Source of the DNA: a virus
Taxonomy: Duplodnaviria; Heunggongvirae; Uroviricota; Caudoviricetes
DNA length: 64,000 nt
Virus record (IMG/VR): IMGVR_UViG_3300043395_001986
Location: 173,308 to 237,307 of that record
Strand: one strand, 5' to 3'
The first letter of the stretch is position 1. Each line of letters begins with the position of its first letter. The notes under the pieces are model-generated. The model worked only from the letters and a program-made list of their open reading frames with translations, had not been told where the DNA came from and ran no database searches. The position numbers were made by a program, and so were the translations under genes. This document shows, one piece after another, positions 1,177-30,764 of this stretch.

Positions 1177-1177
1177 A

Positions 1178-2455: not shown

Positions 2456-3029
2456 TTTACCATATTATAGACCTCTTTTTAAAAGAGAAGTATTAGTTCC
2501 ACCTATGAATGTTCAACCAGGGGGTTTTTATAGATTGTGGTCTTATACGACAGTAGAAGGAAAAAGTAAAAACTATGGTGGAACAAAAGCACCTATTTTA
2601 ATGGTAATTGGTACGGTCAAAAGTACCGGTTTAATACATGCAATAAGAGTAAGTGATTTACCAATTAATACTTTTATTAAATTCTTTAAACGAATTATGA
2701 ATAGAGAATTTATACAGGAGTCACTTAATATGGAATATCAAAACACATTCTTAAAGAGAAAGGATTTACATTATAGAAATAACGGAAATGCGTATGTGGT
2801 GGATGAGCCATTTGGTAGAAGTTTCTATCAAAGAATGATTGGTAGCAATAATCTTATCATGAATTACTATGAAACATATAGAACATATAAGATAAAAAAT
2901 ATAAAAAATATGAGAGAAGTGTATTTTGATTGGAAAAAATTTGTTAAAACACATCCACAATTGGGTAAATTTATAATACCAACAAAAACAACACCACCAC
3001 CTCCACCACCAAAAAAAGTAATAAAATAA
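2445..3029 (+). CDS. Hypothetical protein with C-terminal poly-Pro/Lys tail
   Basis: 194-aa ORF overlapping upstream stop by 11 nt; ends TTPPPPPPKKVIK; no recognisable catalytic motif. Confidence 0.4.
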   Translation: MPDNLPYYRPLFKREVLVPPMNVQPGGFYRLWSYTTVEGKSKNYGGTKAPILMVIGTVKSTGLIHAIRVSDLPINTFIKFFKRIMNREFIQESLNMEYQNTFLKRKDLHYRNNGNAYVVDEPFGRSFYQRMIGSNNLIMNYYETYRTYKIKNIKNMREVYFDWKKFVKTHPQLGKFIIPTKTTPPPPPPKKVIK

Positions 3030-3030
3030 T

Positions 3031-3654
3031 ATGAAATTAAGCTTTGCAGTTACGGTCTCAACGGAAATAAAAGAAATAGAAAATTTAATTAAGCTTTTAG
3101 CTAAAAGAACAAAAACTACTGAAATAGTTGTTCAATATGATAGTTCAAACACTACATTAGAAGTTATAGAATTTCTAAATAAAAGTTTAATTGAAAATAA
3201 AATAGATAAATTAGTATCATATCCTTTAAATGGTGATTTTGCTAATTTTAAAAATCATCTAAATGCAAATTGTAGTGGAGAATTTATTTATCAATTAGAT
3301 GCAGATGAATTGATTGATTCCAAATTTTTAAAAGCATTACCAAATGTATTGGATAACAATAAGGATATAGACCTTTTCTTTGTACCCAGAATCAATACAG
3401 TCAACGGATTAACAGAAGAACACATTCAAAAATGGGGATGGAATGTAAACGAAAAGGGTTGGGTAAACTTTCCGGATGTACAAACACGCATATACAAAAA
3501 CAAACAATCTATATTTTGGGCAGGTAAAGTTCACGAAAGAATACAGGGGTTTGAATCATATTCAGTATTACCAGCTGAAGAAATATATTGTATACAGCAT
3601 CATAAAGATATTAAAAGACAAGAAAAGCAAAACGCTTTATATGATACTATATGA
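3031..3654 (+). CDS. Putative glycosyltransferase family 2-like (GT-A fold)
   Basis: N-terminal beta-alpha-beta start (KLSFAVTVSTE), DxD-like YQLDADELID, aromatic-rich C-terminal half; sits among GT2 genes. Confidence 0.45.
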   Translation: MKLSFAVTVSTEIKEIENLIKLLAKRTKTTEIVVQYDSSNTTLEVIEFLNKSLIENKIDKLVSYPLNGDFANFKNHLNANCSGEFIYQLDADELIDSKFLKALPNVLDNNKDIDLFFVPRINTVNGLTEEHIQKWGWNVNEKGWVNFPDVQTRIYKNKQSIFWAGKVHERIQGFESYSVLPAEEIYCIQHHKDIKRQEKQNALYDTI

Positions 3655-4133
3655 ATTGGGTAATTTTTACAACAGAGTGTAGTGGTAAAACAACATTTGC
3701 TAAAAACAATAAATTCAATTTAAACGAATACCAAATTGTTGATTGGGATGTTATTAAGACAGTACCAGATATTAGATATGAAAATGAATTAATGTTTATT
3801 GATTTAATTGTAGAATTGCAAAAATCTGATAATAAAATATATCTAACAAATATAGTTCCACCTGATTTTATTTTTGGATGTAAAGATTATTTTAAAAATA
3901 TAAACTTTGCAATAATTCTTATAAAAGAAGAACAATTAATTAAAAATATTAAAAATAGGCATCATCCACAATATAATAGTCAATATATTATTGATAAATA
4001 CAATTCATTTAGAGTCAAAATTGGCATGAAAAATGAAAAAATAAAAGTATTTAACAATTTTGAAGAGTTTAAAAATTACTTATATCCACCAGCAAGTAAA
4101 TTAGAAATTAAACAAAGAATAATTAGGTTATGA
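3651..4133 (+). CDS. Hypothetical protein (degenerate P-loop-like N-terminus)
   Basis: 160 aa; TTECSGKTTFAKNN resembles a Walker-A-like loop but lacks the first Gly; ATGA overlap with neighbours. Confidence 0.35.
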   Translation: MNWVIFTTECSGKTTFAKNNKFNLNEYQIVDWDVIKTVPDIRYENELMFIDLIVELQKSDNKIYLTNIVPPDFIFGCKDYFKNINFAIILIKEEQLIKNIKNRHHPQYNSQYIIDKYNSFRVKIGMKNEKIKVFNNFEEFKNYLYPPASKLEIKQRIIRL

Positions 4134-4789
4134 AAGAAGTAACTGTCGTTTGTACAAGTTGTAATAGACCGGATTTATTAGAGAAAACACTAGAAAGTTT
4201 TTTTAAATATAACACATATGAATTAACTGCATTTCATATTATAGATGATAGTGCGGTTGTTGGTTGTAATGACCATTTAAAAGAAAAATTCCCATTAGTA
4301 AATTTTTGGTACAATCAAGTAAATTTAGGACAAGTTAATAGTATTGATAAAATATACGGATATGTAACCACTCCTTATGTATTTCATATGGAAGAAGATT
4401 GGGAATTTTACAAAGAAGGTTTTATAGAAGCGGCATTAGAAATTATTGATGTTGAAAAATGTATATGCGTAACTGTCAGAGATATAAATGATACTAAACA
4501 CCCAACAATACCACCAACATATCGAACTAAAAATGGAATACATTTTAGAAAATTAATGTGGGGGTTCGATGGTCATTGGCACGGATTTACATTCAATCCA
4601 TCTTTAAAGAAAATGAAAGATTATCCAGAAAATGGATATGCACCAATTGGTAGAGAATTAGATTTAAGTAAATATTATTATGAATTAGGTTATTTTGCAC
4701 TTACTTTCACCGAAGGATATTGTAGACATGCGGGTTGGGGTAGACATGTTACTGATAAAGGTGAAACGGCAGGATTTCAAACAAATTAA
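4130..4789 (+). CDS. Glycosyltransferase family 2
   Basis: MKEVTVVCTSCNRPDLLEKTLESFFKYN... classic GT2 N-terminus (VxxxTxNRxxxLxxxLxS); HIIDDSAV (DxD/DDS) motif. Confidence 0.6.
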   Translation: MKEVTVVCTSCNRPDLLEKTLESFFKYNTYELTAFHIIDDSAVVGCNDHLKEKFPLVNFWYNQVNLGQVNSIDKIYGYVTTPYVFHMEEDWEFYKEGFIEAALEIIDVEKCICVTVRDINDTKHPTIPPTYRTKNGIHFRKLMWGFDGHWHGFTFNPSLKKMKDYPENGYAPIGRELDLSKYYYELGYFALTFTEGYCRHAGWGRHVTDKGETAGFQTN

Positions 4790-4792
4790 AAT

Positions 4793-5995
4793 ATGAAAAT
4801 AAGTTTTTGTATACCGTCAAAAAACAATTTAAGATACCTTAAACATGCAATACACTATATTCAAAAAAATATAGGAGAAATTGATTATGAAATATTGGTA
4901 TGGATTGATAAAAATGAAGATGGAACTTACGAATGGCTAGAATCGGTTAGACCAAAAAATGTAAGATGGTGGTTAAACCCAAAACAAAATCCATTTGGTA
5001 TAGGTAACGCATATGATTTTTTAGTAGAAAATGCAGATAGTGAACTTATTATGATTTATCATGCTGATATGATAATGGGTAAGCATTGTATACAATATTT
5101 GTTAGAATATGTAAAAAAAGGAGTAGTAGTATCTGCAACAAGAGTTGAACCACCACTACACCCACCCTCAGCGGATAAAATAACATTAGATTTTGGATTA
5201 TGGCCAGAAGCGGATATAGAAGATGGATTTAGAGAGGAAGATTTTGAAGAATTTTGCGTAAGTAATACATTTAATAATTTTGAAACAACAAATGGTATAT
5301 TTGCACCATGGTTAATGTATAAAAGTGATTATATAGGACATGACCCTGCATTAAATTCATTGGCAGAAGATATGGATATATTTTTACGAATGAAATTAAA
5401 AGGATATGAATTTATACAACCAAGAGTTGCATTAGTATATCATTTAACATGCAGAGGTGGACAATTTGAACACGCTGTAAATACCGAAGATTTAAGAACT
5501 CGTAGTAGAGAATGGGAATGGCTAAGTATAAATAAAACAAGAGAATTTATTCGTAAATGGAAACATACACCTTTATTAGACAAAGTTGGCCATCCAATAG
5601 AAATACCAAGATACCAAATGGGAGTAAAGGTAATAAACACAAATACGGATTGGTTGTGGTTGTTTGATTTATATTTTGATAAGGTTTATTTAGAAAATCA
5701 ATCAATGAATGTAAAATTAGCAACCGATAGATATTTGAATTTTGAATCGCAAAATACAGCAACAAATTTATATACAAAATTTAGCAACACAGAGCAATCG
5801 GTAAAAGATTGCGATATTTACATTGAAATAGATTGTAATATCTTAAACACACAATCTCATCCACAATTTTTTGCAGAATTACCTTTCCATATTAAGAAAT
5901 ATGGAATTGAAGGCAAAAAAATGAAAGCGCTGGATATTCTATTTAAATTTAACAAATTAACTGAAAGACAAAAGGAGTATATTTATATAAAGTAA
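4793..5995 (+). CDS. Glycosyltransferase family 2 with ~200-aa C-terminal extension
   Basis: MKISFCIPSKNNLRYLKHAIHYIQKN (GT2 start), LVWIDKNEDGT, MIYHADMIM; long C-terminal domain of unknown function. Confidence 0.6.
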   Translation: MKISFCIPSKNNLRYLKHAIHYIQKNIGEIDYEILVWIDKNEDGTYEWLESVRPKNVRWWLNPKQNPFGIGNAYDFLVENADSELIMIYHADMIMGKHCIQYLLEYVKKGVVVSATRVEPPLHPPSADKITLDFGLWPEADIEDGFREEDFEEFCVSNTFNNFETTNGIFAPWLMYKSDYIGHDPALNSLAEDMDIFLRMKLKGYEFIQPRVALVYHLTCRGGQFEHAVNTEDLRTRSREWEWLSINKTREFIRKWKHTPLLDKVGHPIEIPRYQMGVKVINTNTDWLWLFDLYFDKVYLENQSMNVKLATDRYLNFESQNTATNLYTKFSNTEQSVKDCDIYIEIDCNILNTQSHPQFFAELPFHIKKYGIEGKKMKALDILFKFNKLTERQKEYIYIK

Positions 5996-9346: not shown

Positions 9347-10114
9347 ATGAATTGTTTTGTAAAAATATTTGGATGTTCACATTCTGCTGACGGCCCCTTT
9401 CGCAATACAGATAAATTGATATCTTTTTTTAAATCAAATGGATATGAAAATGTATATGTAAAAAATATAGCACATTCTGGAAATGCAAACGATAAAATAA
9501 TAAATGATGTTTATGAAAATGCAGAAATGGAATTGGGAGAAAATATATTTTACATAATACAATATTCTTATTTAAATAGATTGTGGTTACCAAATGATAT
9601 GAATATGATTTTTCATAGTTTTTTATTAGATGAAAAAACAGGTGAATGGCCACCATATATACCAATTGAAAAACGAAAATATTTAAAAAGTATGTATGAG
9701 TCGTTTGTAACTTGTTTTTATAGCGATAAATTGTATTTTGATGATTTGATTAAAAAGATTACATTTTTAAAAACATATTTAGATAGTAAAAATATTAAAT
9801 TTATACATTTTTTATGGGAAGCAGTATCTAGTGAAGAAGAAATGGTAGAATCGAGAAACGAGTTTCATAAATTGTATTTAACGGATAAAATAAAAACAGG
9901 CGAAATAGATAAACGATATTTCAATAAATTAAAAAATTTAGAATTAATAGAATTTGAAAAAAATATATTTAATTTTAGTAAAATATCATTTGATAAAAAA
10001 ATAACAAATTGGCATACATTTGGTGGCGGTAATTTTGATTTGCATTTAACAAATGAAGGAAATGATTTTTTAAGTGAAATTCTATTAAATAAGTTATATG
10101 AAAAAATACAATAA
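9347..10114 (+). CDS. SGNH/GDSL-family hydrolase-like protein (paralog 3, divergent)
   Basis: Block I IFGCSHSADGP, block II NIAHSGNANDKI, block V DLHLTNEGNDFLSEIL. Confidence 0.5.
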   Translation: MNCFVKIFGCSHSADGPFRNTDKLISFFKSNGYENVYVKNIAHSGNANDKIINDVYENAEMELGENIFYIIQYSYLNRLWLPNDMNMIFHSFLLDEKTGEWPPYIPIEKRKYLKSMYESFVTCFYSDKLYFDDLIKKITFLKTYLDSKNIKFIHFLWEAVSSEEEMVESRNEFHKLYLTDKIKTGEIDKRYFNKLKNLELIEFEKNIFNFSKISFDKKITNWHTFGGGNFDLHLTNEGNDFLSEILLNKLYEKIQ

Positions 10115-10943
10115 ATTATATAGCAATGGTTGCTCTTATATGTGGGGACACGGACATAACAATGTTAATATTTTCCATATGTTTGAAGAAACGAAAAATA
10201 TAGATATATCTGAAAAAATGATATATGAAAAAAATTCGTTTTTTAATAATTACGATTGGGTTAGAAAAAAGTTTCAATATCCGAAATTAGTTGCTGACCA
10301 TTTTGGATTAGAATTAATAGATGAATCAATATATGGTGGTAGTTTTGAAAGAGTATATAGAAAAACAATGCAATATATTCTTAAAACAAAAGATATATCT
10401 GATACTATATTTTTATTAGAATGGCCAAACGGAAGTAGAAGTGAATTTTGGTCGAATACAAGTAATAGATTCATCAATCTAACAGCAATGCGAGATAATT
10501 TCGATAATGTTGATTTTGATGATTTTGGGCAAGCAGGTAATTGGTATTATAGATTCTATGACCCAAATATATTTCAAATAAATGAAATTTTTATGGGTTT
10601 AACTTTAAAAAATTATATAGAATCATTGGGTGGTATTGCTGTTTTCTGTTTATGTGATAATTTAGAATTTTGTTTTAAACACGACACAAAAAATGTTGTT
10701 AGTAAGTATTTGAATGAAGATGATTTACGTGAAAAATTAGAAAAAGAAATATATCCAAATTGTGTTTTGTTTGAAAAGGGAATGAATAAAAATTATAATT
10801 TAATATATTACTACTTACATTTAGAAAAAGCAGCATTCAAATACGATACAAATGGGCTATTCAAAGATGAACATAATTCTTTCAGAGGATCGAGACTTAT
10901 TGCAGAGAATATAATAAAACACATAGAAAATGTTACAAATTAA
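10098..10943 (+). CDS. SGNH/GDSL-family hydrolase-like protein (paralog 4, divergent)
   Basis: Block I YSNGCSYMWGHGH, block II ESIYGGSFERV, block V DEHNSFRGSRLIAENI. Confidence 0.5.
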   Translation: MKKYNKLYSNGCSYMWGHGHNNVNIFHMFEETKNIDISEKMIYEKNSFFNNYDWVRKKFQYPKLVADHFGLELIDESIYGGSFERVYRKTMQYILKTKDISDTIFLLEWPNGSRSEFWSNTSNRFINLTAMRDNFDNVDFDDFGQAGNWYYRFYDPNIFQINEIFMGLTLKNYIESLGGIAVFCLCDNLEFCFKHDTKNVVSKYLNEDDLREKLEKEIYPNCVLFEKGMNKNYNLIYYYLHLEKAAFKYDTNGLFKDEHNSFRGSRLIAENIIKHIENVTN

Positions 10944-11931
10944 AATAATACAACCAGATAGATTAGAAAGATTTAATGTTAATTCTGATTTACATAAATT
11001 ATTACCATTCAAAGCAAGAGGTGATGAAAATAATATTATATTTGAAAATTCTAATGATGCTGATATAAACATAGTAAGTTCTTTTCATTTAAAACAATTA
11101 TATAAAAATGAACAATTTTCTGAAATAGAAAATATAGGTAAAAAAATATTAATAATTGATAATATACATGAACATTTGGATATAACCGATTTGGAAAATA
11201 TATCAAAATATTTAGAAAAAAAACCAATAGTTTTTACTGCAAACATTTTATTATACAATTCGGATTTATGTTATACACCATCAAAAGAATTTGCAATATA
11301 TCAATTTTATGATGTTTTACATAGAACTGATTTTATAGAAAATAGGAAGTATGATGTAGTTTCATTTAACAACGCAGTAAGACCATATAGGGATTCATTA
11401 GTAAATAAACTTCTTGAAAAAAAGAAAGAATTTGATGTTATCACATATCTTTTATCAGATATAGCTGGTGTTAAAGAATTTAATAAAAAGTTTAAATGGA
11501 AACATGATGCATATATTGATGTTCAATTTACAATCGCCAACTCATATCTAAATGTATATTCGGAATCTATGTTTTCTCAAAAGCACACCGGAAATCAAAG
11601 TGTAAAAGTAACAGAAAAAACATATTGGAATTTAGTAACGGGTACACCTTTTTTATCTTTTGAGTATAATAATGATAAATTAGATTTTTTAAAAAGTTTT
11701 GGGTTCTATACATTTGATGATTTGAATTTATTTCCAAATGAAGATTTTGATTACAATAAGACCGTAGAGTTCTTAAACACTAAAATTGATTACATATATA
11801 ATATGGATTTAATTGAATATTTTAACAACAATATAGTATTTTGTAAAAATAATAATGTTTTATCTAGAAATATTTTAGAAAATTATAATTTTAAAGAAGA
11901 TTTTACAAAATTATTAGATTCAAATTTTTGA
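10930..11931 (+). CDS. Unknown paralog family 'X' member 1 (putative glycan-processing enzyme)
   Basis: C-terminal region FSQKHTGNQSVKVTEKTYWNLVTGTPFLSFEY...LDFLKSFGFYTFDDLNLFPNEDFDYNKTVEFL aligns with FSEKTIKGLFSPRPFILHSYPFSLKKLRKLGFKTFDFLFDEEYDNIVDHEQRL of 36261 ORF and the equivalent in 37418 ORF. Confidence 0.5.
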   Translation: MLQIKIIQPDRLERFNVNSDLHKLLPFKARGDENNIIFENSNDADINIVSSFHLKQLYKNEQFSEIENIGKKILIIDNIHEHLDITDLENISKYLEKKPIVFTANILLYNSDLCYTPSKEFAIYQFYDVLHRTDFIENRKYDVVSFNNAVRPYRDSLVNKLLEKKKEFDVITYLLSDIAGVKEFNKKFKWKHDAYIDVQFTIANSYLNVYSESMFSQKHTGNQSVKVTEKTYWNLVTGTPFLSFEYNNDKLDFLKSFGFYTFDDLNLFPNEDFDYNKTVEFLNTKIDYIYNMDLIEYFNNNIVFCKNNNVLSRNILENYNFKEDFTKLLDSNF

Positions 11932-11959: not shown

Positions 11960-12604
11960 ATGACAACAATCATAAAAATAAAAAACTATATTGCAGATAA
12001 GATAGCAATATTTTTCCTGGCATTAGTAGGTATATGGATTGCTTTTGCATTATTATTCCAACTTACAATGGTGGGTATACATTTTAGTGGAAATACACAA
12101 TTAGAAACAGATATTGCAAATTGGTTTAGTTGGAAATTTGATGGTACATTCAAAAACTCACCAGAAAATATTTGGTATAATGCAGAGGAACATGTTTGGG
12201 TTGAAAGTGTAGAAAATAAAGTTAAAGTTGGTAAATTAGCTGGAAACAGAAATTTAGCATTCGGTGTTAAAAATGTTTTGGAAGAAGCATTGCAAGAAAA
12301 AGGATTGGATTTAGCACCATCAGCAACACAAAAATTAAAAGTTGAAATTATCTATTTAGATGTTTTAACAACAAAATCAAATATCTCCGTATTTCACAAA
12401 GGAGAAGAGGAAGTAGTCATCCGCCTTAAAGGTACAATTTACAAAGATGGCAAAAAAGACAAAGAGGTTATAGTTGAAGAAAGTTCTGCTGAAATCTCAA
12501 TGTCAACGCTCATAATAGATGAAGGTGGTAAGTTTAACCAGACTTCTTTAAGCAATGCATTGAAGAAAGGTTCTGTTAAACTTATTACTAAACTATTTGA
12601 GTAA
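11960..12604 (+). CDS. Membrane-anchored hypothetical protein
   Basis: Two N-terminal hydrophobic helices (IAIFFLALVGIWIAFALLFQLTMVGI); soluble C-terminal domain. Confidence 0.45.
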   Translation: MTTIIKIKNYIADKIAIFFLALVGIWIAFALLFQLTMVGIHFSGNTQLETDIANWFSWKFDGTFKNSPENIWYNAEEHVWVESVENKVKVGKLAGNRNLAFGVKNVLEEALQEKGLDLAPSATQKLKVEIIYLDVLTTKSNISVFHKGEEEVVIRLKGTIYKDGKKDKEVIVEESSAEISMSTLIIDEGGKFNQTSLSNALKKGSVKLITKLFE

Positions 12605-12606
12605 AT

Positions 12607-14271
12607 ATGAAAAAATTATCATTGTTAGTTGCAGCTTTGTTTGTAACTATACTATCATTTGGACAAATTGTTGTTAATCAATCGGTATCATCTGGACCAT
12701 ACAAGGTTGGGGATACAATAACAATAACATATACTGTCAATAAAGGTGAAACCAAGCCTCGTTATTTTTGGTTACGATACCAATATAACAATAAGGCGTT
12801 AACTTATCTTTCAACTACATTTTCACAAGGTAGCCAATCACAAACTTATTATACAGGTTGGACAAACTATAAGTTTACTCCAAATGCAAATATAGCAGAT
12901 ACTTCGTTGTATGCACAATATAATTCTACACCTTGGGGATATGTAACAAATGCAGATTGGAATGTTGGGCAATTAGCAGTTCAAAGAGCAGATAAAAGTA
13001 TAGATGGTGTATTAGCAACTCAAAAATACATTCTTAAAGACCAAAATGCATATGCGAACTTTCATAAATTAGACCTTTCATACGCAACGGATAGTGCAAG
13101 CGGTGTATATATTCCATATGTAAAAACAACTTCGGGTCCTTTATCAATAACTGGCGTAACAGGCAATACATCATATTTTAAAGTAAGAGTATTATACCCA
13201 TCCGGATATAGTATTACTGACCACAATGTTCAATTGATGCCACTTAAAACCGATGGTAGTGGTGATATAGATTGGGCAAAACAACCAATAGCACAAAAAG
13301 TATTAGATGCAAGTGGTGAAGCCTTATTCACATCTGGAATTAAAGTTGGTGATAGTGTTGGTGTATTTGTTTCAAACGCATCCCAAAAAAGTTGGATGAA
13401 TAATGTGATAACTGTCTCTGATGCATATAAAGCATTTTTAGGTATAACTCAAACAGATTTGACGGGAGTTCCAACATATTTCCAAAGACCAGCATTAGAA
13501 AAGAAAATTGGTAATGTAACTAAAAACGATATGGACTTTACAGAGGCAGATGCATACAATTTATTTGCATATGTAATGGGACAAGATGTATCAGCAAACG
13601 CATTTATTCCAACATCAACCGCAACTTCATGGAGATGGCATAGTGGTTTATTAAATCAAAGTTGGTTAAACGGAACGGCGACAAATAAAGTATATGTAAC
13701 AGCACCACAACAAACAGCAGAAGCGGTATTTGCATGGGGTGGTGATTTAGACTGGTCACATTCATCTTTTCCTGATACAATCGCAGCAAGAATAGCAAGT
13801 GGTATCTATACAAACGCAGTTAATCCTGGTACATCGGATGTAGCTAATATTAAAACTATGGCAGTTTCAACAAACACATCAATTGCATATAATTCGGCTA
13901 CATTAGAAACAATATCATTGGGTGTAACTTCTAAATTGGAAGGTGGTAAAGTTGTATTAAGTACAAACTTAACAAAAGAAGGTTTAGCAGGTTTACAGGT
14001 CATAATGCAATACGATAGCACAAAATTAAGTTTAGATAATGTAATATTCAATACAGGTTCAACAATGACAAACTTCTCAACAAAAGCAGATGGTAGACTG
14101 ACTTTTGGTTCTATTGACCAATTAAAAACTGCGCGAATTAAAGTTGGAACACCTTATATATTGATATTCACTCCAAAGGTAACATTAAATAATACAGCAG
14201 GTTTATTCTATTTCGTATTAGCAGATGCAGTTGACGGAAACGGAAACAAACTAAATCTAAACATAGAATAA
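12607..14271 (+). CDS. Secreted modular protein with dockerin-like repeats and C-terminal cohesin-like domain
   Basis: Sec signal MKKLSLLVAALFVTILSFGQ; VITVSDAYKAFLGITQTDLTG and NDMDFTEADAYNLFAYVMGQD resemble dockerin Ca-binding repeats; C-terminus KVVLSTNLTKEGLAGLQVIMQYDSTKLSLDNVIFNTGS...DGRLTFGSID matches the cohesin pattern (..V.V.L....GF.G.QF.L.YD...L......G). Confidence 0.6.
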   Translation: MKKLSLLVAALFVTILSFGQIVVNQSVSSGPYKVGDTITITYTVNKGETKPRYFWLRYQYNNKALTYLSTTFSQGSQSQTYYTGWTNYKFTPNANIADTSLYAQYNSTPWGYVTNADWNVGQLAVQRADKSIDGVLATQKYILKDQNAYANFHKLDLSYATDSASGVYIPYVKTTSGPLSITGVTGNTSYFKVRVLYPSGYSITDHNVQLMPLKTDGSGDIDWAKQPIAQKVLDASGEALFTSGIKVGDSVGVFVSNASQKSWMNNVITVSDAYKAFLGITQTDLTGVPTYFQRPALEKKIGNVTKNDMDFTEADAYNLFAYVMGQDVSANAFIPTSTATSWRWHSGLLNQSWLNGTATNKVYVTAPQQTAEAVFAWGGDLDWSHSSFPDTIAARIASGIYTNAVNPGTSDVANIKTMAVSTNTSIAYNSATLETISLGVTSKLEGGKVVLSTNLTKEGLAGLQVIMQYDSTKLSLDNVIFNTGSTMTNFSTKADGRLTFGSIDQLKTARIKVGTPYILIFTPKVTLNNTAGLFYFVLADAVDGNGNKLNLNIE

Positions 14272-14274
14272 TAA

Positions 14275-16932
14275 ATGAAAAAATTATTAGTTACACTATT
14301 CTTATTTATATCATTTTTAGGGTTCGGTCAGCAAATAAATGCACCAGACCCTAAAGAGTTTACTGTCAACACATCCGGACAAGATGCAAGTGGATTTAGT
14401 TTAAGTGGATTTAATTCTACTGCAACTTTACTTTGTGCAATTGGTTTACCCACAGCACCAATCGGAACTACATTTTATTTCTCAACAACATCCGGCGTAA
14501 CTGCATCAACCGGTTACACAATGAGTGGTAACAAAACTCGTATTTCATTCACCGGAACAATGGCTAATATCAATAATGTATTGGCATCAATGAAAATAAA
14601 CACAACGGGAACAGCGGGTGATATTAGTATTTCAGTATCAGCAACTGTCAACCCAACGGGATATTATTACTTACCAACAAACGGACACTTTTATAGACCT
14701 ATGAGTGGGTTTACCGGGGTAACTGCATTTAGTGGAACTTCTGTAACTGCATATAATAATCTTAAAACCTATTGTACTCAACAATCATTCAAAGGACAGA
14801 CTGGCTATCTAATGACAATCACATCATCAGATGAAGATAACTTCGTTGTAAACAATGTACCTGGAAATAATATTATATTTGCACTTACCGATAATGTAAC
14901 CGAAGGTAGATTTGTAATTGATGCAGGACCTGAAAATGGAACTGTCGTAAGAATAAACTCAACAAATCAAACAGGACAATATAATAACTGGGCAAATGGT
15001 GAACCAAACAACTGGGGACCTGGTGAGGATTATGTTGTAACAAAATGGAATGGTTCACAATGGAATGATTTTGGACCCGAAGCAACCGCGTTCCCTGGCG
15101 GATTGGGTGGATATGTAATTGAGTTTGGAACTTGGAACAATCCTGATGACCAAACTTTTAGTGATTTTTACAATAATAGTGTGGTGCATTATAATGGTGT
15201 AAACAATAATTTAAAATCACAATTTACAATTAACTTTGGTGGCAATATAGATGAAACTAAATTTTCAGCAGCATTACATAAAAGAAATGATGCAACATCA
15301 GCTTGGACAGCAAATTCAAATGTGGCATTAAATGGAGTGGGAAGGGTAACTCTATCAACTCAATTAGATACGGCAAAGGTATTTTCATCTGCAATATCAA
15401 TAGCAGCAACAAATGATATGACTCAATATAGTGAAAGTGATATTGGTAAGATATATAAAATGACTATAACGGGCAATACAGGTGGCGGTGCAATTTGGGG
15501 GACAAACATATACACAAACGATTCATATATTCCAAAAGCAGCAGTGCACGCTGGGATTTTAACTGCCGGACAAACAAAAGAAGTTTACATTAAAATAGTT
15601 GAAGGACAAAACGACTATCCATCAACAACACAAAATGGTATAACATCGGATAGTTGGGGAGCATGGGGATTGAGTTATCAATTTGTTGCCAATCCAACTG
15701 CATACAAAGCAACAATTACACCGGGGCAAGTTGAATGGTCTTATACAAATCCAAACGCAAGTTGGTTGAGTGGTAATAGTAGATTGTTAATAGATATGAG
15801 ACAAGTTGGTAGTATTGACCCTACTAAAATTACACATACAAAAATATTTGATGCATATGATGGAGTTATGACATATACTTCGCATGACGCAAATGGTTGG
15901 GCAATATACACAGTCCCATCACCACTAACAAAAATAACTGATGGAACTTCCGCATACAATTCTTATATTAGAAATGTAAATAATTGGAATACGGATTATG
16001 CTTTTCAAAGCACAATCACACTTACACAACAAGGAGCATATAAACAACATAAATTTGTATTTCAAAATTATGATTCGGTTCAATTAAAATCTCTTTATAA
16101 TAGTATTGTGACGGTATCGGATGTGTATTTGGCATTCAAAGAATATTCAGAAGCAGGTGGTATATTTGGTGGTGGAAGTGGAACACAATTTACCTATGGT
16201 ATTCAATTCAAAAATGCGGATGTAGATGGTAATAATGTATTTGATGAAAGAGATTGTTTTAGATTATTACAAAACCTTACAGGTGCAAGAGATTTAGTAA
16301 GTAGTTATGTGTTGGATAGCACTATGAAAATTGTGTTGGACTCTACATACGGAACTATTGGAAAATCTAATTGGCAACAATTTCCATCTTATTTAGGAAA
16401 GGAATATAGTTTTAGTTTATTAGAAGGAAAAACAAACTATTCATACAATTTAGCGGTAACTTGGAAAGGTGATGTAAACTTATCACATTCAGCAACACCG
16501 CCGGCAAATGGTATAACAAATATGTCAGCAAACTTTGGTGAAAGAGTGCAATCAATGGGTGTAAGTGTTCCAATGAATGCAAGTATAATGACTGAATTGA
16601 GTGGGGATAGTGTGTATGTAGAAATCGTATTTAACCCAGGAGATAACAACATAGTAGGAACTCAATTCCAATTAAACTATGATAACTCTTTGTTAAAATA
16701 TAATAAAACCGAATATATCGTAAATGGTTCACCAACTAACTATTCCGCAAACAAAGGAACTTTTATTAATGTGGGTTCTTTGAATACGGATGGTTCACAA
16801 ATTACATCAGCAACTTACAAAGTTCTATTCACTACTACACAAAAATTGAATGGTGGATTGGGATTGGTAAGTGTGGGTAATTCGGAAGCAGTTAGTAAAG
16901 ATGGTAAATCATTGGGAGTAAAAATAAAATAA
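14275..16932 (+). CDS. Secreted modular protein: C-type lectin-like domain + LCCL domain + dockerin-like + cohesin-like modules
   Basis: Signal MKKLLVTLFLFISFLGFGQ; CTLD: GHFYRP...KTYCTQQ...GYLMTITSSDEDNFV...NNWANGEPNNWGPGEDYVVTKWNGSQWNDFG; LCCL: IWGTNIYTNDSYIPKAAVHAGIL; dockerin-like DVDGNNVFDERDCFRLLQNLTG; cohesin-like VYVEIVFNPGDNNIVGTQFQLNYDNSLLKY. Confidence 0.7.
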   Translation: MKKLLVTLFLFISFLGFGQQINAPDPKEFTVNTSGQDASGFSLSGFNSTATLLCAIGLPTAPIGTTFYFSTTSGVTASTGYTMSGNKTRISFTGTMANINNVLASMKINTTGTAGDISISVSATVNPTGYYYLPTNGHFYRPMSGFTGVTAFSGTSVTAYNNLKTYCTQQSFKGQTGYLMTITSSDEDNFVVNNVPGNNIIFALTDNVTEGRFVIDAGPENGTVVRINSTNQTGQYNNWANGEPNNWGPGEDYVVTKWNGSQWNDFGPEATAFPGGLGGYVIEFGTWNNPDDQTFSDFYNNSVVHYNGVNNNLKSQFTINFGGNIDETKFSAALHKRNDATSAWTANSNVALNGVGRVTLSTQLDTAKVFSSAISIAATNDMTQYSESDIGKIYKMTITGNTGGGAIWGTNIYTNDSYIPKAAVHAGILTAGQTKEVYIKIVEGQNDYPSTTQNGITSDSWGAWGLSYQFVANPTAYKATITPGQVEWSYTNPNASWLSGNSRLLIDMRQVGSIDPTKITHTKIFDAYDGVMTYTSHDANGWAIYTVPSPLTKITDGTSAYNSYIRNVNNWNTDYAFQSTITLTQQGAYKQHKFVFQNYDSVQLKSLYNSIVTVSDVYLAFKEYSEAGGIFGGGSGTQFTYGIQFKNADVDGNNVFDERDCFRLLQNLTGARDLVSSYVLDSTMKIVLDSTYGTIGKSNWQQFPSYLGKEYSFSLLEGKTNYSYNLAVTWKGDVNLSHSATPPANGITNMSANFGERVQSMGVSVPMNASIMTELSGDSVYVEIVFNPGDNNIVGTQFQLNYDNSLLKYNKTEYIVNGSPTNYSANKGTFINVGSLNTDGSQITSATYKVLFTTTQKLNGGLGLVSVGNSEAVSKDGKSLGVKIK

Positions 16933-17831
16933 TGAAAAAAATATTATTAATCATATCATTGGTTTTAATTGGATTTGTATCAAACGCACAAATACAAAAA
17001 CCTGATACATTACAATTATCCGCAAAAGAATTATTTGGAGAGAGTGATGATTGGAATGATGTGGGTATATTACAATCCTATATTGATTTCTCAAAAGATG
17101 TTCTTTCATCATCAAATCTTTCGGTTGGTATAATTGGAAAACAGGTATCAACAACACTTAATTTAGGATATAGTAAATCATCACTAAATGGAAAATGGGC
17201 ACATACATTTGCAGCATCAATAAATCCTTTATGGAAATATTATGGAGTGGGATATGGTTTAAGTAGAAATACTGAAAAGAGAACAACAACAATACAAACA
17301 TTTTATTCTACGGATTTTGATTTTCAAAAAGATATTAACCTATCATTTATTGATGTGTTTAGAACTAAAAAATGGGGAACATTTGGATATAGTTTAACTG
17401 CATCAAAAACATTTTGGGGAGAATATGAAAATGTTTCTGCTTGGGAAGGTAAGTTTATTGTTGATGAAAATGGTAATTGGGTAAAAAACATATATCCAAT
17501 AGACCCAGCATCATCTGAACTTACTTATAGAGGTATGGCAATGTACACATATACATTGAAAACAAAAAGAGTGAATATATCACCACAGGTATTTGCAATG
17601 AGTGATATATACAAAGTATTCAAAAATGGTGGCACATCTGATTTTTCGTACTTTGATGATTTCAATTTGGACTTATATTATGGAGTATCTATGGATTGGA
17701 AAATAACTAAAAGATTTGTGTTGAATACCAATGTTAGATATAACACAACTTGGGATACATTAAGTGAATCAGTTGGATATAAAAAGAGTAACCCAATCCT
17801 ATTTATGATAGGAACAAACTTTCAATTTTAA
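16932..17831 (+). CDS. Secreted outer-membrane beta-barrel-like protein (paralog of C-terminal domain of 22856 ORF)
   Basis: Signal MKKILLIISLVLIGFVSNAQ; alternating hydrophobic beta-strand pattern; C-terminal aromatic (..NFQF); ISPQVFAMSD...ITKRF.LNTNVRYN aligns with ISPQVFGMNS...ISKRFGFSFNYRAS of 22856 ORF. Confidence 0.5.
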   Translation: MKKILLIISLVLIGFVSNAQIQKPDTLQLSAKELFGESDDWNDVGILQSYIDFSKDVLSSSNLSVGIIGKQVSTTLNLGYSKSSLNGKWAHTFAASINPLWKYYGVGYGLSRNTEKRTTTIQTFYSTDFDFQKDINLSFIDVFRTKKWGTFGYSLTASKTFWGEYENVSAWEGKFIVDENGNWVKNIYPIDPASSELTYRGMAMYTYTLKTKRVNISPQVFAMSDIYKVFKNGGTSDFSYFDDFNLDLYYGVSMDWKITKRFVLNTNVRYNTTWDTLSESVGYKKSNPILFMIGTNFQF

Positions 17832-18175
17832 TGAAGAAGATATTATTTATATTATTTTTAAGTTTGGTAGCTTGTAGAAAAGTAGAAGTTATACCAACAC
17901 CACAACCTACAACAACCGATATATTTTCAAAATCAGAAGTAGCAGTTAAAGATGGACAAGATATACAATTCAAACTTACATCAGCAGGTAAATATATACT
18001 TACTTTGATGGATTCAACTCAAACACAGGTAGTAACAAAAGAAAAATTTACTGGAATTGTTGGAGATAACACAAAAAAAATATATACTAAATCATTATCA
18101 CAAAAAAGTTTATATTTATACCTAACAGACGAGAGTAACAAAGAAATTGGAAAAACTAAAATAACAATAAATTAA
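17831..18175 (+). CDS. Small lipoprotein (paralog A) with beta-sandwich/T9SS-CTD-like C-terminal pattern
   Basis: Lipobox LSLVAC; C-terminal alternating pattern YILTLMD...KSLYLYLTDESNKEIGKTKITIN similar to neighbour 18177 ORF. Confidence 0.5.
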   Translation: MKKILFILFLSLVACRKVEVIPTPQPTTTDIFSKSEVAVKDGQDIQFKLTSAGKYILTLMDSTQTQVVTKEKFTGIVGDNTKKIYTKSLSQKSLYLYLTDESNKEIGKTKITIN

Positions 18176-18176
18176 G

Positions 18177-18545
18177 ATGAAAAAACTATTATTCGTATTA
18201 TTCGGAATTATGGTTATAGCAGGATGTAGAAAAGACCCATTTGTAACCCCACCAGTTGCGGTTGACAATAGTCTTACAATTTCACAATCCGTTGGTATTA
18301 AATTACAATCACCATTTGTGACAACAGAAGTAGCAATGAATGTAAAAGTTGAAGCAGGACAAAATGTGACAATAAAGATATTTGATATTGCAAACAGAGT
18401 AGTATCAAAAGAAACGGCATGGGTAAATAGTGGTGATAATATCTTAAAGGTATATACATCAGCACTTCCAGCATCAGCATATAGAATTGGTTTATATGAC
18501 GTAAATGGAAAACAATTAGGTATAACAGATTTTAACAAATTATAA
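18177..18545 (+). CDS. Small lipoprotein (paralog B) with beta-sandwich/T9SS-CTD-like C-terminal pattern
   Basis: Lipobox VIAGC; VTIKIFDIANRVVSKETAWVNSGDNILKVYTSALPASAYRIGLYDVNGK resembles Por/T9SS C-terminal sorting domain pattern (v.iyD..Gr.v....G.n...id.s.l..GvY.v.l). Confidence 0.5.
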   Translation: MKKLLFVLFGIMVIAGCRKDPFVTPPVAVDNSLTISQSVGIKLQSPFVTTEVAMNVKVEAGQNVTIKIFDIANRVVSKETAWVNSGDNILKVYTSALPASAYRIGLYDVNGKQLGITDFNKL

Positions 18546-18556
18546 AAAGTAACAAA

Positions 18557-18871
18557 ATGGCAGAAGAAACACAAGAGCAATCAACAGGTGGTTCAATGAA
18601 AAACGTAATCATCGGTTTTGTATCTACGATTACATTAGGTTTGGGTACATGGGTAACAACAAAATTAACAGGTGGTGAAGAAAAGGAAGCTCCGGTACAA
18701 ACCGCAGCACCAGTAATTAACATTCAAAACACCCAACAACAATCAGCAGGCAAGACTGTAATTGTAAATGGTGGTGGAAACAATGGTGGGGCAGCAGCTA
18801 AACCAACAGATGCACCAAAACCAAAGAAGAAAGAGGGTGATGAGTTTAAAGAAAAAGCACCTGAATGGTAG
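18557..18871 (+). CDS. Small membrane protein
   Basis: One TM helix (VIIGFVSTITLGLGTWVTTKL); Gly/Ala/Lys-rich tail. Confidence 0.4.
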   Translation: MAEETQEQSTGGSMKNVIIGFVSTITLGLGTWVTTKLTGGEEKEAPVQTAAPVINIQNTQQQSAGKTVIVNGGGNNGGAAAKPTDAPKPKKKEGDEFKEKAPEW

Positions 18872-18955
18872 TATGGTATCAAATAGGGACGGTTCTATTT
18901 TTTATAATAGGATTGACTTTATTAATTAAATGGTCATTTAAAATAAAGAAAGAAG

Positions 18956-19633
18956 ATGAGTAATCAACAACCACCAAGCGGGTTTAGAGACCTGTTAAAT
19001 AAAATGATGAGTCGTAGATGGTATATTACCGCTATGGTATTAGGTGGGTTTATGGTAATTATTGCAGGTATCTTTACCGCAATTAGTTTACAAACCCCAA
19101 TGGCGGCAGCATGGAAAGAATTACTAATGTTATTATTGGGTGCTTTCATTGGTAGCTATGGTAAAATCATAGATTACTGGTTTAGTGATACTGATAAGGA
19201 TAAAATGTTAGTACAAAAGATGGATGAAGAAGATGGTGTTACCCTTTCACATACAAACGATATGAAAGAAAGTAACAAAGAAATCGCACCAACCATTCCA
19301 GATGCATTTGTACAAGGAGCAGCAGCTGCAAGTAAATTAGCAGTAGTTGAAAACCTACAAAACTTTGAATTAGCTAAAATGGAAGTAAATGTAAAATCAG
19401 AACCAAATAATCCACAACATAGTGAAACTCCGTTCAAAGCACAACCTAGAACAGGTGTTGAAGTGGATGAGGATGGTGATGGTAAAATGGATGGTATTGA
19501 TTTTGATGGTGATGGTGTAATTGATATGTATTTTGCACATCGTCAATGTGAGCATGTATGGGGTGATGCAGACCACGATGGACACGATGAGTGCCAAAAA
19601 TGCGGTTTATTAAAAGAAAAATATAACGGATAA
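18956..19633 (+). CDS. Membrane protein with Asp/Gly-rich Ca-binding-like repeats and His/Cys-rich C-terminus
   Basis: Two TM helices near N-terminus; EVDEDGDGKMDGIDFDGDGVID (EF-hand/D-x-D-G-like repeats); HRQCEHVWGDADHDGHDECQKCG metal-binding cluster. Confidence 0.45.
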   Translation: MSNQQPPSGFRDLLNKMMSRRWYITAMVLGGFMVIIAGIFTAISLQTPMAAAWKELLMLLLGAFIGSYGKIIDYWFSDTDKDKMLVQKMDEEDGVTLSHTNDMKESNKEIAPTIPDAFVQGAAAASKLAVVENLQNFELAKMEVNVKSEPNNPQHSETPFKAQPRTGVEVDEDGDGKMDGIDFDGDGVIDMYFAHRQCEHVWGDADHDGHDECQKCGLLKEKYNG

Positions 19634-19669
19634 AGGTTACATAGTTAATAACAATTAAAAACAAAAGCT

Positions 19670-19945
19670 ATGGGATTTTTTAAAGATTTAGTAAGTGATG
19701 ATAATCACATAAACGAAAAATCAGTAATCGGTATCTTATCATTCTTTGTAATGGTATTATGTATGATTGTTGATTTAGTAACTGGTGCAATGAACAAACC
19801 ATTATTAATTAATGAATTTGTATTCAATGCATTTATGTATCTAACTTTAGGAGCATTTGGTATTGGTTCTATTGATAAATTCATCAATAAGAAATCAATA
19901 ACGGATAAAGCTAAAATAGATGCCGGTGTTGAAGAAGAAGGATAA
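19670..19945 (+). CDS. Small two-TM membrane protein (holin-like topology)
   Basis: 91 aa with two hydrophobic helices (VIGILSFFVMVLCMIVDLV; FVFNAFMYLTLGAFGIGS) and charged C-terminus; followed by a strong terminator. Confidence 0.4.
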   Translation: MGFFKDLVSDDNHINEKSVIGILSFFVMVLCMIVDLVTGAMNKPLLINEFVFNAFMYLTLGAFGIGSIDKFINKKSITDKAKIDAGVEEEG

Positions 19946-19962
19946 TAATTTGATAATATTAT

Positions 19963-19993
19963 AAACCCTCACTTTTGGTGAGGGTTTTTTATT
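19963..19993 (+). terminator. Rho-independent terminator
   Basis: AAACCCTCAC-ttttg-GTGAGGGTTT followed by TTTATTTATT; perfect 10-bp stem. Confidence 0.75.
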
Positions 19994-20000
19994 TATTGTT

Positions 20001-20696
20001 ATGAAAGAAAAATTGACGATTGTTATTCCGTGTAAAAACGAAAAAGATAACATATATGAGTGTATTTCATTTATTGCAAAACAAGTGGGTTCCGCAGGAC
20101 TTAAAGTTATTATTGCAGATAACTCCGATGAAGGAGATAGTTTAGATTTTTTGTATTTTGTTCAAAGAGATTTTAAATATTGTTTGGATATTCAAATCAT
20201 AGAAGGTGGATTTCCTGCAAAAGCTCGTTTAGAAGGTAGTAAATTGGTTGAAACACCTTATATTCTTTTTTTAGATGCAGATATAATGTTGCAAAATAAA
20301 TTTGTATTAGGTGAATGTTTAGTATACGATACGGATTTAGTGACCGTTCCATTTCAAACCGAAAAAGGATTTAATTGGATATTTAGATTATTTGATATTC
20401 AGCAAAGATTGAGTAATTGGTTGGGAACACCATTTGCAATTGGTGGTTTTCAATTTTGGAAAACAGAAGCATATTGGAAAACTGGTGGATATGATGAAAC
20501 ACATTTATTTGCAGAAGATTATTGGGTATCACAAAAAACAGAGGTAATGAAAATACACAAAACAAAAGGTGTATGGACATCCGCAAGAAGATTTAAAAAT
20601 AAAGGATTTTTTTATATGTTTTGGTTGAGTATAAAATGTTACTTTAATAGAAATAATCCAGAATTTTTCAAAAAACATCACAACTATTGGATATGA
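20001..20696 (+). CDS. Glycosyltransferase family 2
   Basis: MKEKLTIVIPCKNEKDNIYECISFIAKQ (GT2 N-terminus), FLDADIML (DxD). Confidence 0.6.
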   Translation: MKEKLTIVIPCKNEKDNIYECISFIAKQVGSAGLKVIIADNSDEGDSLDFLYFVQRDFKYCLDIQIIEGGFPAKARLEGSKLVETPYILFLDADIMLQNKFVLGECLVYDTDLVTVPFQTEKGFNWIFRLFDIQQRLSNWLGTPFAIGGFQFWKTEAYWKTGGYDETHLFAEDYWVSQKTEVMKIHKTKGVWTSARRFKNKGFFYMFWLSIKCYFNRNNPEFFKKHHNYWI

Positions 20697-30731: not shown

Positions 30732-30764
30732 AATCTAAATATTAAACATTAAAAAACAAAAGTT

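Follow-up and report, generated by a model that had tools for sequence, protein, structure and literature searches.

Predicted exported lectin and cohesin-fold proteins with a shared C-terminal module in an uncultivated aquatic jumbo-phage lineage

Introduction

What might a phage gain from a pair of secreted proteins that both end in a cohesin fold, one of them with lectin domains ahead of it? The question is raised by two adjacent genes in a 64,000-nucleotide stretch of a tailed-phage genome (Caudoviricetes; IMG/VR record IMGVR_UViG_3300043395_001986, positions 173,308 to 237,307). This whole 64-kb stretch is called the window here, and coordinates count from its first letter. The genes encode p554 and p885, of 554 and 885 amino acids (aa), in which a first-pass annotation, made from the sequence alone, had suspected a virus-encoded assembly of the cohesin-dockerin type. 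The best overall explanation that we can offer, and to which we give not quite an even chance, is an exported lectin pair which would share a docking or anchoring module and form a complex that binds glycans of the host envelope.

Results

The two genes and their features

The two genes lie 3 nt apart. Both open reading frames (ORFs), and every peptide string that the first-pass annotation had quoted from them, were found where it had placed them. Their features, with the evidence for each in brackets, are these:

12607..14271, plus strand: p554, a 554-aa predicted exported protein, the scaffold-like paralogue (ORF)
12607..12663, plus strand: p554 predicted signal peptide, aa 1-19, predicted cleavage between SFG and Q (sequence, conserved leader)
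12667..13131, plus strand: p554 N-terminal beta-sandwich, aa 21-175 (AlphaFold, hhalign, Foldseek)
13387..13581, plus strand: p554 dockerin-like pair of helices, calcium loops degenerate (TVSDAYKAFLG ... FTEADAYNLFAYVMG), aa 261-325 (hhalign)
13735..13764, plus strand: p554 invariant motif WGGDLDWSHS, aa 377-386 (conservation, 81 representatives)
13903..14268, plus strand: p554 predicted C-terminal cohesin-fold domain, aa 433-554 (hhalign, orthologue Pfam matches, Foldseek)
14275..16932, plus strand: p885, an 885-aa predicted exported lectin protein (ORF)
14275..14328, plus strand: p885 predicted signal peptide, aa 1-18, predicted cleavage between GFG and Q (sequence, conserved leader)
14752..15069, plus strand: p885 C-type lectin-like domain, matched aa 160-265 (Lectin_C, alignment to mannose-binding protein A)
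15001-15009 and 15061-15069, plus strand: motifs EPN (aa 243-245) and WND (aa 263-265) of that domain (alignment)
15487..15669, plus strand: p885 LCCL domain, aa 405-465 (PF03815)
16087..16290, plus strand: p885 dockerin-like segment, aa 605-672 (sub-threshold Dockerin_1, hhalign)
16219-16254, plus strand: p885 canonical EF-hand loop (loop consensus)
16462..16491, plus strand: p885 invariant motif WKGDVNLSHS, aa 730-739 (conservation, 81 representatives)
16573..16929, plus strand: p885 predicted C-terminal cohesin-fold domain, aa 767-885 (Pfam Cohesin, AlphaFold, Foldseek)

Both are real genes. Full-length metagenomic homologues with 60-100% identity (60-97% for p885) are numerous, amounting to more than 2,400 clusters at 90% identity for p885 and more than 3,300 for p554; one homologue of p554, on a 237-kb contig, is 100% identical to it.

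The shared C-terminal module

p554 and p885 are paralogous over a C-terminal module of ~285 aa (BLASTP, 2e-7), in which dockerin-like helices are followed by the invariant motif GDxxxSHS, then by a variable linker and lastly by a cohesin. That both proteins end in a predicted cohesin fold, as the first-pass annotation had supposed, is well supported. A scan of nothing but the last 296 aa of p885 gives a Pfam Cohesin (PF00963) match of 26.1 bits (E 1.1e-5), where the cut-off is 24.1. The AlphaFold monomer model of the C-terminal part of p885 has a predicted local distance difference test (pLDDT) score of 80-91 in the cohesin domain, and cohesins make up the whole of its 27 best Foldseek matches in the PDB (E 3e-6 to 1e-4). 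The target-normalised TM-scores of the cohesin matches are 0.45-0.69, and the matches include the non-cellulosomal cohesins of Clostridium perfringens and Archaeoglobus fulgidus. The p554 domain, which remains below the PF00963 threshold at 13.4-15.5 bits, is identified by homology, orthologues and predicted fold: hhalign aligns it to the p885 domain with a probability of 98.6 (E 5e-16), Pfam Cohesin matches 36 of 47 p554 orthologues (best 3.6e-6), and a confident AlphaFold model of the C-terminal part (pLDDT ~80-91) has almost exclusively cohesins as its top Foldseek matches in the PDB.

p554 probably has one more cohesin-like domain, a divergent one at aa 21-175; we regard this assignment as provisional. 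This N-terminal beta-sandwich is modelled with a pLDDT of 85-92 and is related to the C-terminal cohesin profile by hhalign with a probability of 78% over 56 columns (E 1.8e-5). Pfam Cohesin reaches E 0.073, and the Foldseek alignments of p554 to a cohesin dyad and to a cohesin+FN3 pair span 264-600 columns. Since its profile retrieved nothing above noise from the PDB sequences, the call is based on hhalign and the fold matches. An overall build of p554 from one or two cohesin-like beta-sandwiches plus an Ig-like domain is well supported.

The most conserved element, in both families as in 81 distant relatives, is the motif ahead of the linker, with the consensus W-x-G-D-[VL]-[ND]-x-S-H-S. Among the 81 representatives, G is kept in 78, D in all 81, and the S, H and S that follow in 78, 75 and 77. 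The motif block makes up the most conserved 30 aa of the family (mean pairwise identity 0.87), conservation being otherwise uniform and lowest in the linker between the modules. A calcium site and a processing site are both possibilities for GDxxxSHS. The module as a whole is rare: a profile search found 254 clusters among 1.84 billion cluster representatives. In nearly all full-length members the whole module sits at the extreme C-terminus, behind differing N-terminal parts that mostly start with Bacteroidota-type leaders; distant members of the family were found on contigs of 2-3 kb only. The best structural match to the module in BFVD is A0A6J5M064, a 636-aa protein of an uncultured Caudovirales phage that was automatically named "Secretion system C-terminal sorting domain". 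Going by that name, it suggests that some aquatic phages encode cargo of the type IX secretion system (T9SS).

The helical segments that precede the cohesins are homologous in the two proteins (hhalign E 3e-9). In p885, the segment runs from a degenerate first loop with the helix TVSDVYLAFKE over a ~25-aa linker to the canonical EF-hand loop DVDGNNVFDERD and the helix CFRLLQNLTG, and this latter half, NADVDGNNVFDERD-CFRLLQNLTG, has the loop and helix of a textbook dockerin or EF-hand. Over 81 diverse representatives the loop has the consensus D-V-N/D-x-D/N-G-x-F-D/N-x-x-D, with an invariant last Asp (D660). Dockerin_1 is the sole Pfam family to match the p885 segment, and it matches nine of 44 p885 homologues at E<=0.1. 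The full calcium loop of the first p885 repeat is gone, positions 5, 9 and 12 and the helix being all that is kept. As neither of the features that define a type I dockerin was found, namely a score at the gathering threshold and two tandem repeats of ~22 residues with EF-hand loop and helix, the segment is best described as dockerin-like.

The paired dockerin repeats that the first-pass annotation had seen in both proteins are therefore to be reduced to a helical segment homologous between them and a canonical, sub-threshold second loop in p885, whereas the first loop of p885 and the loops of p554 do not hold up. Its assumption that each protein carries both partner modules finds no support as it stands, as p885 alone keeps one canonical dockerin-type calcium loop and p554 keeps none. 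Hidden Markov models of the dockerin-like, cohesin and N-domain modules detected no other significant ORF in the window, which leaves p554 and p885 as the sole candidate partners for each other within it.

Lectin domains and their exchange

The sequence of p885 gives good support to a calcium-type lectin with an intact EPN/WND sugar site, joined by an LCCL domain. The C-type lectin-like domain (CTLD), which the first-pass annotation had recognised, scores just below threshold in this copy (Lectin_C, PF00059: 20.4 bits, E 9e-4, cut-off 22.6). It is supported by Lectin_C matches in 36 of 44 p885 orthologues (best 6e-11) and by a match of mannose-binding protein A at 6e-5 (phmmer), in which EPN and WND are aligned. 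The canonical CTLD disulfide cysteines are missing: the alignment puts Y and G where mannose-binding protein A has the corresponding Cys, and p885 has three Cys only (aa 54, 167 and 661), none of them within the matched LCCL segment. The LCCL domain, likewise anticipated, lies well above its cut-off (PF03815: 55.7 bits versus 22.6, E 5.7e-15); the family matches 43 of 44 homologues, and cochlin (1jbi) matches the p885 domain at E 0.012. No glycoside-hydrolase or carbohydrate-binding module (CBM) family was found in p554, p885 or 10 diverse relatives.

Three architectures occupy the syntenic position of p885 in different loci, one with CTLD and LCCL (~860-885 aa), one with the CTLD alone (~760 aa) and one of the PA14/GLEYA type (~630-640 aa). 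The last is seen in six IMG/VR loci (L027, L029, L046, L058, L066 and L071), where the second module-bearing gene has an N-terminal part that resembles the PA14/GLEYA-carrying members of the family and replaces CTLD and LCCL. Approximately 45 other loci carry the ~760-aa form, whose representative P0370 matches Lectin_C, not LCCL, and a regular expression finds the EPN...WND pattern kept in the CTLD-type syntenic genes. As far as these sequences can tell, the swapping of one predicted calcium-dependent lectin for another in front of a constant module, between lineages, is well supported. It provides the strongest argument of our analysis, as it argues for glycan binding as a conserved and selected function at the p885 position and for a module that would serve assembly or anchoring.

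Export signals

The leaders of p554, of p885 and of a 299-aa protein encoded next to p885 combine a K-rich n-region, a hydrophobic core of ~12 residues, small residues at -3 and -1, and Gln at +1. Signal peptides were judged by a home-made rule-based heuristic, not SignalP; by this measure, N-termini of this kind start 119 of 120 homologues of p885 and 113 of 115 of p554, nearly all with Q next, and the leader is combined with Q at +1 in 119 of 120 homologues of p885, 112 of 115 of p554 and 106 of 106 of the 299-aa protein, against an overall Q frequency of 4%. Gln at +1 is known as the Q-rule, a Bacteroidetes-specific trait of signal-peptidase-I (SPI) substrates (PMC5837995; PMC10653852), and a precedent exists in the Q-rule secreted proteins encoded by Porphyromonas phages (PMC10367356). 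The Sec signal peptides called by the first-pass annotation, with SFGQ and GFGQ at their ends, are borne out as n-h-c leaders conserved across homologues, and its view of the proteins as exported rather than packaged agrees with these predicted leaders, which make both look built for Sec export. Given such Bacteroidota-style Sec/SPI leaders, the infected cell should send p554 and p885 out of its cytoplasm, and their export across the inner membrane is likely. The leaders also point to a probable Bacteroidota host.

Neither protein has a lipobox. Models of T9SS sorting domains (TIGR04183 for type A, TIGR04131 for type B, and PF18962) matched neither p554 nor p885 at E<=1, nor the C-terminal domain of p554 scanned alone at E<=10, nor any of the 81 diverse family representatives at E<=0.1. 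As no other outer-membrane route was recognised, a location in the periplasm, which we take as the default, is at least as likely as one on the cell surface, and the surface scaffold envisaged earlier finds no support.

The envelope operon

The genes around p554 and p885 add the following features:

11960..12604, plus strand: up214, 214 aa, N-terminal transmembrane helix and periplasmic YajG-like (Lipoprotein_16) domain (PF03923)
16932..17831, plus strand: OMP299, the optional 299-aa protein, outer-membrane beta-barrel-like, leader with predicted cleavage between SNA and Q, C-terminal ...GTNFQF (sequence)
17831..18545, plus strand: lip114 and lip122, lipoproteins of 114 and 122 aa with lipoboxes LVAC and IAGC (sequence)
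18557..19945, plus strand: three small membrane proteins (104, 225 and 91 aa), the end of the conserved block (sequence)

It is well supported that p554 and p885 are the core of a tightly packed, lineage-wide envelope operon. The genes abut or overlap, with gaps of 0-12 nt, and every product carries at least one of three features: signal peptide, lipobox or transmembrane helix. The first gene, up214 (PF03923: 26.3 bits, cut-off 25), precedes p554 in 74 of 77 viral loci, and the order p885-(OMP299)-lip114-lip122-g104 is kept in 61 of 71. The 299-aa protein, by its sequence a putative outer-membrane beta-barrel, is encoded directly after p885 in 33 of the 71 loci and is 82-100% conserved where present; its gene is a clean presence/absence indel, missing even from a 97%-identical relative (L003). 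The protein matched no known family, PorP/SprF included, and PDB sequence searches with it and with the 214-aa protein came back empty.

The operon block gave no match to families of virion, lysis or defence proteins. The 122-aa lipoprotein has weak matches to DUF3244 and Por_Secre_tail. A reading as lysis cassette or spanin was considered and discarded, the single hint being a weak Rz-like match of this lipoprotein (E 0.038), with no endolysin family among the neighbours scanned. Related loci do not share the region upstream of the operon. The sole strong terminator-like hairpin is located at 19963-19987, and a promoter and terminator scan, which did not include Bacteroidota promoters, found no more sites than in shuffled sequence.

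The 225-aa protein of the conserved block (18956-19633) has two predicted transmembrane helices, and in its C-terminal part DxDGDG repeats resembling calcium loops stand in tandem (DEDGDGKMDGIDFDGDGVID) ahead of a Cys/His cluster; the topology suggests that this C-terminus is cytoplasmic.

Replicon, host and genome setting

The window has a G+C content of ~30% and all of its genes on one strand; no tRNA genes were found in it. In IMG/VR, at least 137 viral contigs, the longest of 335 kb, carry a member of the p885 family, and the synteny of the p885 neighbourhood is kept on a 337-kb contig from JGI. Among 185,579 GTDB species genomes, one for each bacterial or archaeal species, there is a single relative; its contig, of 3.4 kb, is binned into a metagenome-assembled genome of the Schleiferiaceae (Flavobacteriales) from Lake Mendota. 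Searches of a cultured-phage database with p554 and p885 (blastn and tblastn) retrieved nothing similar, and the PHROGs hold no family for p554, p885 or most of their neighbours, nor any structural match for the two proteins or ~35 other window ORFs that were scanned.

The 137 viral contigs, the 337-kb syntenic contig, the near-absence from GTDB and the phage-like neighbours support the assignment of the replicon to a phage, of an uncultivated aquatic jumbo-phage lineage. The host is most probably one of the Bacteroidota, in the Flavobacteriales, to judge from leader style and the binned relative. Moraphages are likewise aquatic, have Bacteroidota hosts and encode several core glycosyltransferases (PMC12619734), and kinship with them is plausible by analogy of habitat, host and glycosyltransferase traits.

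On either side of the envelope operon, at 322-5995 and 20001-20696, lie at least four glycosyltransferase genes of the GT4 and GT2 types; they fit a phage that glycosylates surface glycans, or its DNA or virion. Just upstream of the operon, three ORFs at 9347-11931 lie in the stretch of lowest G+C in the window (23.5%); as they match no families and are not kept in related phages, the region may be a variable island. Further along, a pair of CobT-like and CobS-like (AAA_5) genes is found at 28617-31988, with a CobS-like protein that is 53% identical both to one of Microcystis phage Mel-JY01 and to one of a 484-kb uncultured phage (LR756508). The SPFH/prohibitin-family protein encoded at 33127-34050 (phrog_200, E 2.5e-68) shares 47-49% identity with proteins from crAss-like phages of Bacteroides, and a DNA ligase and a non-specific nuclease are also encoded in the window. 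An ORF of 386 aa at 51977-53137, with five DxxxDGxxD motifs spaced 50-130 residues apart, could be an FG-GAP/integrin-like calcium-binding repeat protein. The EF-hand-like motifs of this ORF and of the one at 18956-19633 were considered as further docking partners and set aside, the repeats being of a different kind.

Discussion

What can be discerned about the role of the two proteins? In our preferred explanation, the shared C-terminal module would be a device for assembly and anchoring. The single intact calcium loop of p885, together with its helix, would dock onto a cohesin of p554 or of another p885 molecule, and the product would be a small multivalent lectin complex, located on the outer membrane or inside the periplasm, kept in the envelope by the adjoining membrane proteins and lipoproteins, and bound to the envelope glycans of the infected cell. 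Self-assembly through cohesin-dockerin contacts, the central idea of the first-pass annotation, is a plausible hypothesis. As to its effect, our guess would be a masking of receptors, by which superinfection might be excluded or progeny kept from adsorbing to debris, or else an altered adhesion; in the periplasm, an EPN-type lectin could meet peptidoglycan, with its N-acetylglucosamine. A more elaborate form of the explanation, which we consider unlikely, is a calcium-dependent "lectinosome" with p554 as a scaffold for p885, or for the PA14 variants elsewhere, held by a single-loop dockerin; it would coat the glycans of the infected cell with a payload that is swapped to suit the glycans of the host.

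Several observations weigh against a docking complex in the envelope. In p885, Dockerin_1 (PF00404) scores 14.2 bits (E 0.053) against a cut-off of 22.9, which even the best p885 homologue fails to reach (21.2 bits, E 3e-4), and the match covers the second repeat, corresponding to the second half of the model, and no more. p554 has no Dockerin_1 match and no canonical calcium loop in either repeat. A profile of the dockerin region found no dockerin in the PDB, where all hits were noise at E ~1, and the AlphaFold confidence is below 50 across the dockerin-like region in both proteins. Beyond the docking itself, the signal-peptide calls come from a heuristic scan instead of SignalP; surface exposure is unsupported, as no recognisable route across the outer membrane, be it a T9SS domain or a lipobox, was found; and the host call depends on the style of the leaders and on one binned contig.

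Could the module serve a partner other than its own paralogue? It may be an anchoring or sorting device for the neighbouring lipoproteins or outer-membrane protein, peptidoglycan or a host factor, acting via the cohesin fold, the GDxxxSHS motif or both, with the "dockerin" as a structural calcium site. We regard this as rather unlikely. It would accord with the place of the module, which in nearly all full-length members ends the protein after a variable payload, as is typical of sorting and anchor domains, and with the fact that GDxxxSHS and not the dockerin loop is the most conserved element. It would also accord with p554, which has lost both calcium loops while retaining the rest of the module, and with the membrane-protein and lipoprotein genes that flank the pair in fixed order. 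However, the fold is best matched by bona fide dockerin-binding cohesins, the second loop follows the canonical dockerin consensus throughout the family, the gene for the outer-membrane protein is dispensable (present in 33 of 71 loci), and no known anchor or sorting family was matched. A separate reading, to which we attach very little probability, makes p554 and p885 T9SS cargo, with the C-terminal sandwich as the domain that sorts them to the cell surface and the 299-aa protein as a PorP/SprF-like partner. The probable Bacteroidota host, the position of the sandwich, the outer-membrane-like protein of ~300 aa encoded directly downstream and the automatic name of the best BFVD match would all suit it. 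Against this stand the absence of any match to TIGR04183, TIGR04131 or PF18962 in the two proteins and 81 relatives, and the absence of any T9SS C-terminal domain from the top 50 PDB fold matches, which cohesins dominate. The putative partner, moreover, has no PorP/SprF match, and about half of the loci lack it. We rejected T9SS cargo with such a partner on the strength of the Pfam and NCBIfam scans and of the indel of the 299-aa gene.

Lectin and beta-sandwich modules are common in the receptor-binding and decoration proteins of phages. p554 and p885 might accordingly be sought in the virion, as fibres or as head or tail decorations that bind glycans, with N-terminal hydrophobic segments that are not functional export signals. 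Across the lineage, the genes belong to the core, keep their synteny and evolve under even purifying selection, as would be expected of virion components, and some capsid proteins of Porphyromonas phages do have predicted signal peptides (PMC10367356). We nevertheless consider a place in the virion improbable, as the leaders are canonical, with Q at +1 in ~99% of homologues, and all operon neighbours are envelope-targeted too. PHROGs gave no structural match for either protein or for the ~35 other ORFs scanned, and nothing similar occurs in cultured phage genomes.

Returning to the envelope complex that we prefer, its closest functional analogues are the non-cellulosomal toxin complexes of C. 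perfringens (GH84 and GH33 toxins; PDB 2jh2, 2vo8, 2o4e and 2w1n), whose structures are among the best fold matches. There too, secreted multimodular proteins combine cohesins with carbohydrate-binding modules and are linked to each other non-covalently. These are, however, proteins of a Gram-positive bacterium with glycoside-hydrolase modules and fully canonical dockerins, whereas the phage pair has no enzyme module that we could find, a half-degenerate dockerin, a diderm host and viral genes. In A. fulgidus, cohesin and dockerin modules occur in adjacent genes, each with both module types. The second-best PDB match, 2xdh, is from this archaeon, which, like the anaerobic methanotrophic (ANME) archaea, employs cohesin and dockerin outside any cellulose context; the archaeal modules have recognisable Pfam dockerins and lack a lectin payload. 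Their specific binding has been verified (PMC9012536; PMC9705933).

The likeness to cellulosomes consists in the cohesin fold, in the pairing of a constant docking module with an exchangeable payload, and in p554, which with its probably two cohesin-like domains resembles a mini-scaffoldin. It ends with the carbohydrate-active enzyme (CAZyme) and CBM modules, the anchoring by S-layer homology (SLH) modules or sortase and the multi-cohesin scaffoldin, all of which the phage pair lacks, and with its sub-threshold dockerin. The predicted payload domains are of kinds known for calcium-dependent glycan binding from the PA14/GLEYA adhesins of fungi and from C-type lectins such as mannose-binding protein, but the context is bacterial and viral, and the canonical CTLD and LCCL disulfides are absent from p885. 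T5 Llp and lambda Lom and Bor exemplify phage-encoded proteins of superinfection exclusion or receptor masking that are exported to the host envelope during infection; they have no sequence or fold relationship to p554 and p885, for which masking is only hypothesised. The phages of Porphyromonas gingivalis share the Sec/SPI leaders that expose an N-terminal Gln, and a modification of the host envelope has been proposed for them (PMC10367356), but their proteins are small and the phages temperate, as opposed to large modular lectin/cohesin proteins in a core operon of jumbo phages.

How new is such a system? In full-text literature searches, no phage was found described with cohesin, dockerin or LCCL modules; UniProt does contain automatic annotations such as "Dockerin type 1 [Myoviridae sp.]". 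The combination of sugar-binding domains with a cohesin fold in a virus has apparently not been described before. The first-pass annotation had called cohesin-dockerin pairs outside cellulosomes, and in a virus, largely unexplored. This stands for the virus but not for the pairs as such, since non-cellulosomal modules are already known in bacteria and archaea, according to a statement in PMC9012536 that cites Peer et al. 2009; the idea is thus new for a virus and not new in kind. What is new is the viral origin, the Bacteroidota Sec context and the lectins in place of enzyme payloads, along with the half-degenerate dockerin, the GDxxxSHS motif and the fixed C-terminal position of the cohesin. 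Even without docking, the ~285-aa module and its invariant GDxxxSHS represent a combination of domains not described before.

If the proposed docking is true, the cohesin-dockerin toolkit would extend to viruses and to the envelope of diderm Bacteroidota, and a minimal one-loop dockerin would work together with a C-terminal cohesin. Should the unlikely "lectinosome" prove true, it would stand as the first cohesin-dockerin assembly encoded by a virus and as a new way of masking receptors or of controlling the adhesion of infected cells. The swap of CTLD for PA14 at a single locus amounts to a natural experiment, through which phage lineages could be connected with the glycans of their hosts. 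A core trait of an abundant, uncultivated jumbo-phage lineage of lakes and oceans, the operon has thousands of metagenomic homologues, and whatever effect it may have on the glycans of the host surface is probably a routine part of infection in aquatic Flavobacteriales.

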